Source of the DNA: a virus
Taxonomy: Duplodnaviria > Heunggongvirae > Uroviricota > Caudoviricetes
Length of the DNA: 6,132 nt
Reading direction: 5' to 3' (one strand)
Virus record (IMG/VR): IMGVR_UViG_2663762857_000017
Part shown: positions 263 through 595 of the stretch, in pieces
Layout: each line of letters begins with the position of its first letter
Numbering within the stretch: position 1 is the stretch's first letter
Program-made: the position numbers and the translations under genes
The notes under the pieces: generated by a model
What the model saw: the letters and a program-made list of their open reading frames with translations, nothing else
Databases searched by the model: none
Told to the model about the DNA's origin: nothing

Positions 263-595
263 ATGAAAATGAAAAGAAATCTTCCGTTAATTATTTTGTT
301 GTCTTCTCTGGTTATGGGCTGTACGCAACATAAAACAGATATGCCCCGACAGTTGGTTAAGGCATTACCACAATATCCGGCCTATGCAGCGGCAAATTAT
401 ATAAAGGGACGGGTTGATGTGAAGTTTGATATTGGTGCTGATGGTACTGTCACCCGAATTGAGTTTATCCGTTCAGAGCCGCACCATTTGTTTGATGAGC
501 AGGTTGTAAAGGCGATGGCAAAATGGCGATTTGAGAAGGACAGGCCGTGTAAAGGCGTGAAGAAAACGTTTATCTTTAGTCCTTCTGCACCCTGA
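263..595 (+). CDS. Moron-encoded lipoprotein with a TonB C-terminal-domain-like mature part (TonB-CTD mimic)
   Basis: ORF-track ORF 254-595 trimmed to ATG 263 (ATG 269 is an alternative start). N-terminus MKMKRNLPLIILLSSLVMG|C has a basic n-region, hydrophobic core and lipobox-like VMGC, with Thr at +2 (suggesting outer-membrane sorting). The mature part, PQYPAYAAANYIKGRVDVKFDIGADGTVTRIEFIRSEPHHLFDEQVVKAMAKWRFE, aligns motif-for-motif with the TonB C-terminal domain as I recall it (PQYPA...G.V.VKFD...DG.V...P..F...V..AM..WR.E). The gene is visibly AT-rich compared with the downstream genes. Confidence 0.75.
   Translation: MKMKRNLPLIILLSSLVMGCTQHKTDMPRQLVKALPQYPAYAAANYIKGRVDVKFDIGADGTVTRIEFIRSEPHHLFDEQVVKAMAKWRFEKDRPCKGVKKTFIFSPSAP

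Follow-up and report, generated by a model that had tools for sequence, protein, structure and literature searches.

Llp and Cor are outer-membrane lipoproteins that inactivate the transporter FhuA from its periplasmic side, and the surface of FhuA to which they bind is also occupied by TonB (bioRxiv 10.64898/2026.03.26.714494). As summarised in PMC9841981, an overexpressed periplasmic domain of TonB inhibits TonB-dependent iron import (Howard et al. 2001), and a pentapeptide of the TonB box lowers both killing by colicins and infection by phi80 (Tuckman & Osburne 1992). The gene considered here is located at positions 269 to 595 of a 6,132-nucleotide stretch of Escherichia coli prophage DNA (IMG/VR record IMGVR_UViG_2663762857_000017; the whole stretch analysed is called the window), and it encodes a small protein that is almost certainly a TonB C-terminal domain anchored as a lipoprotein. 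As to its role, a dominant-negative decoy of TonB is the best-supported reading, put forward as a tentative hypothesis. Neither the gene nor its homology to TonB is a new sighting, as both are already present in databases (RefSeq, phage 21 and the Shiga toxin (Stx) phages), where records name the product "protein TonB", "TonB C-terminal domain protein" (phage 21, CPT_21_73), "TonB fragment" or [quoted passage not shown]. No functional study emerged from a full-text search of the literature on TonB-like proteins of prophages and phages, lipoproteins, decoys, colicins and exclusion; an earlier first-pass annotation of this DNA was likewise not aware of such a protein as a characterised mechanism of exclusion.

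The gene and the parts of its product are laid out in the window as follows:

259-262 (+ strand): Shine-Dalgarno sequence GGGA, read from the sequence, 6 nucleotides before ATG269; AGGA in phage 21
269-595 (+ strand): coding sequence of the lipoprotein with the TonB C-terminal domain, 108 amino acids, stop codon at 593-595, RefSeq WP_000828068.1
269-322 (+ strand): lipoprotein signal peptide MKRNLPLIILLSSLVMG, match to the PROSITE-type lipobox, Cys codon at 320-322
323-343 (+ strand): tether TQHKTDM, 7 residues from the lipidated Cys to the folded domain, low predicted local distance difference test score (pLDDT)
344-580 (+ strand): TonB C-terminal domain (residues 28-106), corresponding to 153-231 of E. 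coli TonB, by Pfam, NCBIfam, PDB, AlphaFold2 and Foldseek

The open frame extends from 254 to 595 on the plus strand and holds ATG codons at 263 and 269. Translation most likely begins at 269, judging from the sequence, because the codon equivalent to 263 is ATA in the allele of phage 21 while ATG269 and a Shine-Dalgarno sequence are conserved. RefSeq, too, gives WP_000828068.1 ("TonB family protein", 108 amino acids) the coordinates 269-595. The first-pass annotation had placed the start at 263, which would add Met-Lys to the product and is probably not correct. Residue numbers in the following refer to the 110-residue numbering that goes with position 263, in which residue n corresponds to TonB n+125.

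Homology of the domain to TonB's C-terminal domain is beyond doubt. The protein scores 54.8 bits with Pfam PF03544 (TonB_C; cut-off 24.6, E=1.3e-14) and 54.5 bits with TIGR01352 (cut-off 27.1), and TonB_C and TonB_2 are its only Pfam matches. Matching sequences in the PDB are the C-terminal domains of E. coli and Salmonella TonB, with E values of about 1e-16; the E. coli chains 1u07, 2gsk and 2grx match residues 28-106 with E=6e-16 to 2.5e-15. Residues 28-106 align without gaps to K-12 TonB 153-231 (numbering checked against the MG1655 record) with 31 identities in 79 positions (39%), a level for which the earlier wording that the protein "aligns closely" with TonB is too strong, though the homology that it expressed stands. 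In addition, a model made with AlphaFold2 from a family alignment of 23 sequences has pLDDT >90 over the domain and displays the TonB_C fold, i.e., a helix, two strands, a second helix and a long C-terminal strand, with a three-stranded sheet (DSSP: H40-44, E49-57, E63-72, H78-85, E96-105). The model superposes on TonB in the BtuB complex with a root-mean-square deviation (rmsd) of 1.0 Å over 79 columns and a template modelling (TM) score of 0.92, on TonB in the FhuA complex with 1.1 Å, and on 1u07 with 1.2 Å. In the PDB, Foldseek places C-terminal domains of the TonB type in its top 16 matches, where TM reaches 0.92, and weaker matches are to TolA domain III. Both the Pfam search and the structural superposition, named beforehand as checks, thus come out in favour of a TonB C-terminal domain. 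No other viral protein with this fold was found in BFVD at E<=0.001.

The N-terminus of the protein resembles that of bacterial lipoproteins, with basic residues (KR), a hydrophobic core free of charges and, as its lipobox, L-V-M-G-C, in which the Cys is residue 20 and is followed by Thr at position +2. The bacterial lipoprotein pattern (PROSITE PS51257-type; lipobox [LVI][ASTVIM][GAS]C) fits MKRNLPLIILLSSLVMG-C, and the same architecture is seen in 32 of the 33 family members examined, with Asp at +2 in none of them; the lipobox Cys is invariant in the 23-member family alignment. A lipoprotein signal, noticed in the first reading of the sequence as VMGC with Thr at +2, is thus found across the family. 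Lipoproteins with a residue other than Asp at +2 are sorted by the Lol system to the outer membrane. Since residue +2 is Thr, the mature protein is expected, after predicted cleavage and lipidation at the Cys, on the periplasmic face of the outer membrane, from which the folded domain would be held by a tether that measures 6-14 residues across the family.

Within the domain, the elements that TonB uses for docking have been retained, including the strand that meets the transporter:

548-577 (+ strand): predicted strand beta3, CKGVKKTFIF, residues 96-105, by DSSP on the model; aligns to TonB 221-230

In the crystal structures of FhuA-TonB and BtuB-TonB, beta3 pairs with the TonB box of the transporter (PMC11658791). 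Upstream in the domain, the extended segment P28..L31....P36.Y38-P39 corresponds in the residue map to TonB P153..L156....P161.Y163-P164, and both the YP motif (Y38-P39) and G61, the equivalent of Gly186, are present, with P39 and G61 invariant and Y38 found in at least 90% of the family alignment. A complete cysteine scan of TonB 150-239 singled out seven functionally important residues, namely Y163, F180, G186, F202, W213, Y215 and F230 (PMC3005593), and all seven are kept as Y38, F55, G61, F77, W88, F90 (in the place of TonB Y215) and F105. As W213, Y215 and F230 are poorly conserved among TonB proteins in general and conserved in enteric bacteria (PMC3005593), their retention fits the finding that the best-scoring relatives of the domain are enterobacterial TonBs. 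A single free cysteine, Cys96 (codon 548-550), is located at the start of beta3, in the context RPCKG in the window allele and RPCQG in the phage 21-type allele; residue 96 is Arg in the representative of the window-type cluster, and conservation of the Cys does not extend to the wider family.

Missing, on the other hand, are the energy-coupling parts of TonB. There is no N-terminal transmembrane anchor, as a cleavable-type lipoprotein signal is found instead, and no proline-rich rod to span the periplasm, with just 7 residues separating the Cys from the domain; the C-terminus follows five residues after F105, the equivalent of F230. Models of full-length TonB equivalogs (NCBIfam, PRK10819) reach 49-74 bits against cut-offs of 265-448, and their matches are confined to the C-terminal ~80 model positions. 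Without the anchor and the rod of TonB, the protein, as its sequence reads, cannot connect to ExbB-ExbD or transmit force, and hence cannot transduce energy.

Upstream of the gene, the sequence holds elements that may serve its own expression:

209-236 (+ strand): promoter-like element, -35 ATGACC at 209-214, 16-nucleotide spacer, extended -10 TGtTAGAAT at 228-236
232-248 (no strand): palindrome AGAATAAG-A-CTTATTCT, perfect over 8-1-8 and in overlap with the -10 element

In a consensus scan, the promoter-like element has 9 of 12 matches plus the TG extension. The block ATTGTnAGAATAAGAC, which holds the extended -10, is kept in the phage 21 allele as the one conserved island in a diverged upstream region; a putative promoter had been ascribed to the gene in the first reading. 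The palindrome is operator-like, but it is not kept in phage 21, which has a deletion of 13 nucleotides there. Regulation by Fur through this palindrome was considered and found no support, since the match to a Fur box (13/19) is equalled by 8% of shuffles and is absent in phage 21. In the LF82 lysogen, transcription of the allele in prophage Perceval is 8-fold above the background of the prophage, and the authors list this "TonB fragment" among the morons of that prophage (PMC9928086). The Perceval allele is 72% identical to the window protein. No intrinsic terminator was found in 1-1700, and shuffled sequences fold as well as the region 590-735 does (z = -0.3). Because no terminator follows and the gene shares its strand with the late operon, late read-through in lytic growth probably contributes to its expression as well. 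Inside the coding sequence, a near-consensus antisense sigma-70 promoter-like site is present at 396-423 on the minus strand (TTCACA, 16 nucleotides, TATAAT; 11/12). An antisense transcript could start there, or the AT-rich acquired DNA could contain a spurious promoter.

How the protein would act as a decoy can be outlined as follows. TonB-box binding is proposed because the surface that captures TonB boxes has been kept and because the protein is expected to be placed where the boxes emerge. Concentrated in that layer of the cell, the domain held at the outer membrane would capture TonB boxes by beta-strand addition but could not pull, and its non-productive binding would compete with host TonB. 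The targets would be the TonB boxes of FhuA, FepA, CirA, BtuB and others, and possibly of incoming group B colicins. The lysogen, or the cell late in lytic growth when read-through from the late promoter adds to expression, would then lose sensitivity to agents that need energised TonB, for example phages of the T1 and phi80 type, colicins B, D, Ia, Ib and M, a number of microcins, and albomycin, and would pay with slower uptake of siderophores and vitamin B12. Broadened to the temperate phages of E. coli and Klebsiella, the proposal is that they carry a natural dominant-negative TonB giving their lysogens broad protection from TonB-dependent phages, group B colicins, microcins and sideromycins at lower siderophore and B12 uptake, which may be so, although we hold it with reserve.

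Several observations weigh against a TonB decoy. [quoted passage not shown] Two TonB residues linked to contact with transporters differ in the protein, as Q160 is replaced by Leu35 and R166 by Tyr41, and Tyr41 is invariant in the 23-member alignment. The orientation that a 7-residue tether allows for pairing with a TonB box calls for caution, and the palindrome at the promoter holds no significant Fur box. Among the defence models of PADLOC-DB 2.0 the protein has no match, with a chance-level E=0.022 to a cyclase model. The tail tips of the carriers are lambda-type, with a J C-terminus 54% identical to J of lambda and 434 and 78% identical to that of phage 21 J, and no cor gene is annotated in the carrier phages; with such a J and no annotated cor, nothing suggests that the carriers use a TonB-dependent receptor. 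Finally, members of the same family reside in ordinary chromosomal loci of Klebsiella, Raoultella, Erwinia and Pantoea, with neither transporter nor iron genes nearby. As a constitutive TonB antagonist would be costly there, these loci hint at a different or more specific role. It is for the chromosomal members, the lack of a Fur box, the two differing contact residues and the geometry of the tether that the decoy mechanism is held tentatively. A link between the protein and the carrier's own receptor was also considered and set aside, as the comparison of J is uninformative about a TonB-dependent receptor.

The gene is widespread in E. coli. At >=80% coverage, 400 complete genomes of the species contain the exact region, and the gene, in either allele type, is found in 1616 of 5426 complete genomes (about 30%), 414 of them with the window type (>=95% nucleotide identity) and 1201 with a type ~74% identical to it. 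The exact protein is encoded on at least 1000 contigs of a large collection, and as annotated the gene is absent from the usual K-12 laboratory background. Among phage records, 15 of 50,697 are carriers. Proteins 99-100% identical to that of the window are encoded by Lys8385Vzw, several Stx1a-converting phages and JLK-2012, those of phage 21, ev017, Perceval and ECOR prophages are 72% identical, and that of a Klebsiella phage 40%. In IMG/VR, 221 viral contigs encode a relative, and the best 80 of these 221 are near-identical to the window.

Beyond these phages, profile searches retrieved relatives of 104-133 amino acids with the same architecture from genomes of Klebsiella, Raoultella, Erwinia and Pantoea and from Salmonella-labelled genomes. 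Family members are just 33-46% identical, and the lipobox and a residue other than Asp at +2 are nonetheless conserved; invariant positions in the 23-member alignment include, in a list that is not exhaustive, the lipobox Cys, P28, P36, P39, Y41, A42, G49, G61, S71, P73, L76, F77, A84, W88, R89 and E91. A profile search of 1.84 billion representatives yielded 45,144 TonB_C proteins, with multi-repeat proteins dominating the top and about ten short single-domain representatives, of which all those read are lipoproteins. In a neighbour-joining tree of the domain, the family forms one clade on a long branch from the TonB of E. coli and Salmonella, which, as the tree has just two TonB outgroups, is an indication rather than a rigorous result. 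Recent capture of the 3' end of host tonB, for which a check had been proposed, is rejected, as the gene shares 50% of nucleotides with K-12 tonB in a codon alignment, differences at synonymous sites have reached saturation (proportion of synonymous differences, pS, 0.80) and blastn gives no match; the G+C content is 43% for the gene and 52% for K-12 tonB. Given this low identity, the saturated sites and a family that extends across Enterobacterales, the phage gene derives from an old lipoprotein family that arose from a TonB domain of the enterobacterial type and not from a recent pick-up.

The chromosomal loci differ from one genus to another. In Klebsiella and Raoultella, the gene is located beside lacI and a gene for a Rick_17kDa-type lipoprotein, in Erwinia between a sugar ATP-binding cassette (ABC) transporter and araA, and in Pantoea among metabolic genes, while other family members are found near integrases or insertion sequence (IS) elements. 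A DUF1440 (YagU-like) gene adjoins the TonB_C lipoprotein gene in the Raoultella/Klebsiella chromosome (L002 1277-1903), and such a gene is also seen 3 kb upstream in the Klebsiella phage ST13-OXA48phi12.4 (L003 8731-9294). The two DUF1440 proteins are 61% identical, which could be a coincidence or a functional link.

It is from these loci that another explanation draws its strength, namely that the fold has been kept for a different partner, such as peptidoglycan, Lpp, OmpA, one of the periplasmic binding proteins or some further protein of the envelope. TonB itself has been reported to contact outer-membrane proteins that are not receptors, as well as peptidoglycan. The protein would then serve the physiology of the envelope, for example its stability or resistance to serum or stress, in the way proposed for the neighbouring moron lipoprotein Bor, and would have no effect on TonB-dependent entry. 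Chromosomal members in four genera, some of them beside small envelope lipoproteins (Rick_17kDa_Anti) and the DUF1440 membrane protein, are consistent with such a role, as are the position of the gene next to bor in phage 21 and Perceval and two invariant motifs that are the family's own, YPxYA (with Tyr in the place of R166) and SEPxHLFD. Yet the features that have been kept are exactly those of the module that docks to TonB boxes, the closest relatives by score are the TonB proteins of enterobacteria, and Pfam detects no peptidoglycan-binding or other domain, which together leave a different partner unlikely, though deserving of serious attention.

It could also be speculated that the protein acts more narrowly, in the way of Cor and Llp, by locking one transporter, the receptor of the carrier or of its close competitors, in a state that cannot be infected. 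Llp and Cor prove that small outer-membrane lipoproteins at the periplasmic face of a single transporter are a strategy of phages, and mutation of the conserved aromatic residues of TonB gives transporter-specific phenotypes (PMC3005593). In addition, the two deeply diverged alleles in E. coli (72% identity) are compatible with different specificities. However, the J C-termini of the carriers resemble those of phage 21, lambda and 434 rather than proteins known to bind FhuA, and TonB boxes are short and similar, so that beta-strand addition alone would not be expected to be narrow. With no cor gene annotated in the carriers either, exclusion at one transporter is improbable.

A further possibility is that the domain traps TonB rather than its boxes, pairing beta3-to-beta3 with the C-terminal domain of host TonB and holding it at the outer membrane, which would have the same outcome as a decoy through another target. 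The best fold match, 1u07, is a dimer of TonB C-terminal domains, and the beta3 strand is kept. Disulfide mapping in vivo, however, indicates that the dimers seen in crystals do not form in cells (PMC3005593), and such a trap is regarded as quite improbable.

Database labels point in two other directions. A full-length match to phrog_1267 (E=7.7e-43), which is labelled "Rz-like spanin" in the category lysis, would make the protein a lysis accessory, and the position of a lipoprotein gene downstream of the lysis cassette is in keeping with this. The anatomy is not, and on that ground the spanin annotation was rejected. Separate Rz/Rz1 genes are present more than 500 bp upstream in phage 21, Perceval and the near-identical prophages, and the gene is neither embedded in nor adjacent to an i-spanin gene and has a promoter-like element of its own. 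The mature part is a globular domain of 90 residues rather than a short proline-rich peptide, and the model has no C-terminal transmembrane segment. Finally, the Perceval allele is transcribed in the lysogen, and homologues exist outside phages. A role as a spanin is thus very improbable, and the PHROG label appears to be a mis-annotation carried over from position, one that will spread through annotation pipelines based on PHROG.

The gene is, moreover, functional and under purifying selection rather than a decaying fragment. Between the window and the phage 21 allele, synonymous divergence (dS) is 1.46 and nonsynonymous divergence (dN) 0.18, with a dN/dS of 0.12 that is similar for the signal peptide and the mature part. 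This ratio, the presence of the gene in 1616 of the 5426 genomes and its intact state beside a pseudogene lysozyme all speak for function. That it is a non-functional piece of TonB carried passively, as the words fragment, partial or truncated TonB in several records would have it, is barely credible, being effectively refuted by selection at saturating dS and by conservation, with a lipoprotein signal acquired and conserved across genera, a conserved promoter element, a transcribed Perceval allele and intact copies in ~30% of complete E. coli genomes.

If the decoy reading is correct, prophages possess a new mechanistic class of exclusion or immunity, directed at a shared energy-coupling step rather than at a single receptor. 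TonB coupling is the common gate for many phages, colicins, microcins and Trojan-horse antibiotics (albomycin and siderophore conjugates of the cefiderocol type), and the gene would be a widespread hidden modifier of susceptibility to colicins, phages and siderophore antibiotics in ~30% of E. coli, including the Stx prophages of enterohaemorrhagic E. coli (EHEC). Part of the variation between strains in sensitivity to colicins, phages and sideromycins would thereby be explained. The protein would also be a natural counterpart of the engineered dominant-negative fragments of TonB and, for structural biologists, a stable, monomeric, membrane-proximal probe of TonB-box capture. If its role is a different one, it would still have to be explained why a family of TonB domains anchored at the outer membrane exists and is conserved in Enterobacterales.

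The window represents a junction in the late region of an E. coli prophage of the lambdoid or HK97-like kind, and the following genes are found downstream of the lipoprotein gene:

727-927 (- strand): YlcI/YnfO (DUF3950) gene, 66 amino acids, Pfam E=4e-19; phrog_949 (no known function)
969-1334: HNH endonuclease
1626-2189: small terminase
2186-3847: large terminase
3911-5848 (+ strand): fused prohead protease/major capsid open reading frame, 645 amino acids; Peptidase_S78 at 48-153, HK97-type capsid at 386-635

In every phage examined, the lipoprotein gene is located between the lysis genes and the packaging genes, and the packaging module beside it is either lambda-type, as in phage 21, or of the HNH/terminase HK97-type, as in the window, Lys8385Vzw and the Klebsiella phage. 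In phage 21, about 760 bp separate the end of the homologue from the right cos end, and in both phage 21 and Perceval the gene adjoins bor. Its G+C content of 43% differs from the 56% of the window and the 51-60% of neighbouring genes, and its presence varies between related phages, as is looked for in a moron. Of the earlier description of the gene as a moron, the position between lysis and cos, the AT-rich composition and the promoter-like element hold, while no terminator of its own was found.

Several other observations concern the surroundings of the gene. The YlcI/YnfO gene is convergent to the TonB-like gene and occupies the same position in near-identical prophages. The non-coding gap of 290 bp between the HNH and small terminase genes (1335-1625) contains a run of ten G at 1343-1352; it is the expected place of cos for HNH-dependent packaging of the HK97-like kind, and the circular record of Lys8385Vzw is opened inside it. 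The fused protease/capsid open reading frame directly follows the large terminase gene and precedes the portal gene, an unusual order of head genes. Positions 100-130 of the window match the start of CPT_21_72, a hypothetical open reading frame of 45 amino acids in phage 21 (L001 5852-5989), and the rest is diverged, suggesting that the window probably holds the remnant of this small gene. In E. coli S1-KEN-03-A, a prophage region (L016 669-2066) is 99.9% identical to the window; its lysozyme gene has an internal stop and YdfR is truncated, while the TonB-like, ylcI, HNH and terminase genes are intact. The carrier may thus be defective as a prophage and yet keep its lipoprotein gene.

Set against the known systems, the protein is closest to the C-terminal domain of E. 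coli and Salmonella TonB (~150-239; 1u07, 1xx3, 2gsk, 2grx, 8rd6), to which it is homologous with 39-42% identity and 1.0-1.3 Å rmsd. Unlike TonB, it is encoded by a separate gene, with a lipoprotein signal and a tether of 7 residues where TonB has its N-terminal transmembrane anchor (His20), proline-rich rod and linker; it is predicted to be anchored to the opposite, outer membrane, and it does not have the tail of TonB 232-239. The periplasmic TonB fragments of Howard, Herrmann, Stratilo & Braun (2001, J Bacteriol 183:5885) were reportedly soluble laboratory constructs that were overexpressed. The prophage protein, in comparison, is natural, moves with phages and is predicted to be tied to the outer membrane by a lipid anchor. 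Both consist of the C-terminal region of TonB without its energy-coupling anchor, as the constructs are summarised in PMC9841981.

Among lipoproteins encoded by phages, Llp of T5 and Cor of phi80, HK022, N15, mEp167 and T1 are likewise small and located at the outer membrane, where they act on FhuA from the periplasmic side through a binding surface that overlaps that of TonB. They are unrelated to the present protein in sequence and fold, as had been supposed at first pass, since Pfam gives TonB_C and TonB_2 only and the fold search gives only TonB- and TolA-type domains. Furthermore, Llp and Cor are specific for FhuA, whereas a protein mimicking TonB's C-terminal domain would be expected to address the TonB box shared by many transporters. 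Bor, the moron lipoprotein of lambda-type phages, is found in the same neighbourhood between lysis genes and cos and is also small, located at the outer membrane and expressed from the prophage, yet it has no relation in sequence or fold and is encoded on the opposite strand. The function proposed for Bor is serum resistance, with no involvement of TonB. The stand-alone TonB_C lipoproteins of Klebsiella, Raoultella, Erwinia, Pantoea and Salmonella ("TonB family protein") share the architecture, at 104-133 amino acids, and belong to one clade with the prophage protein, although many of these Enterobacterales proteins are encoded in chromosomal loci outside phages; the literature searched describes no function for any of them. 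Placed among these systems, the protein can tentatively be assigned to the prophage outer-membrane lipoproteins that act on TonB-dependent transporters, in this case one that would be built from the docking domain of TonB itself.

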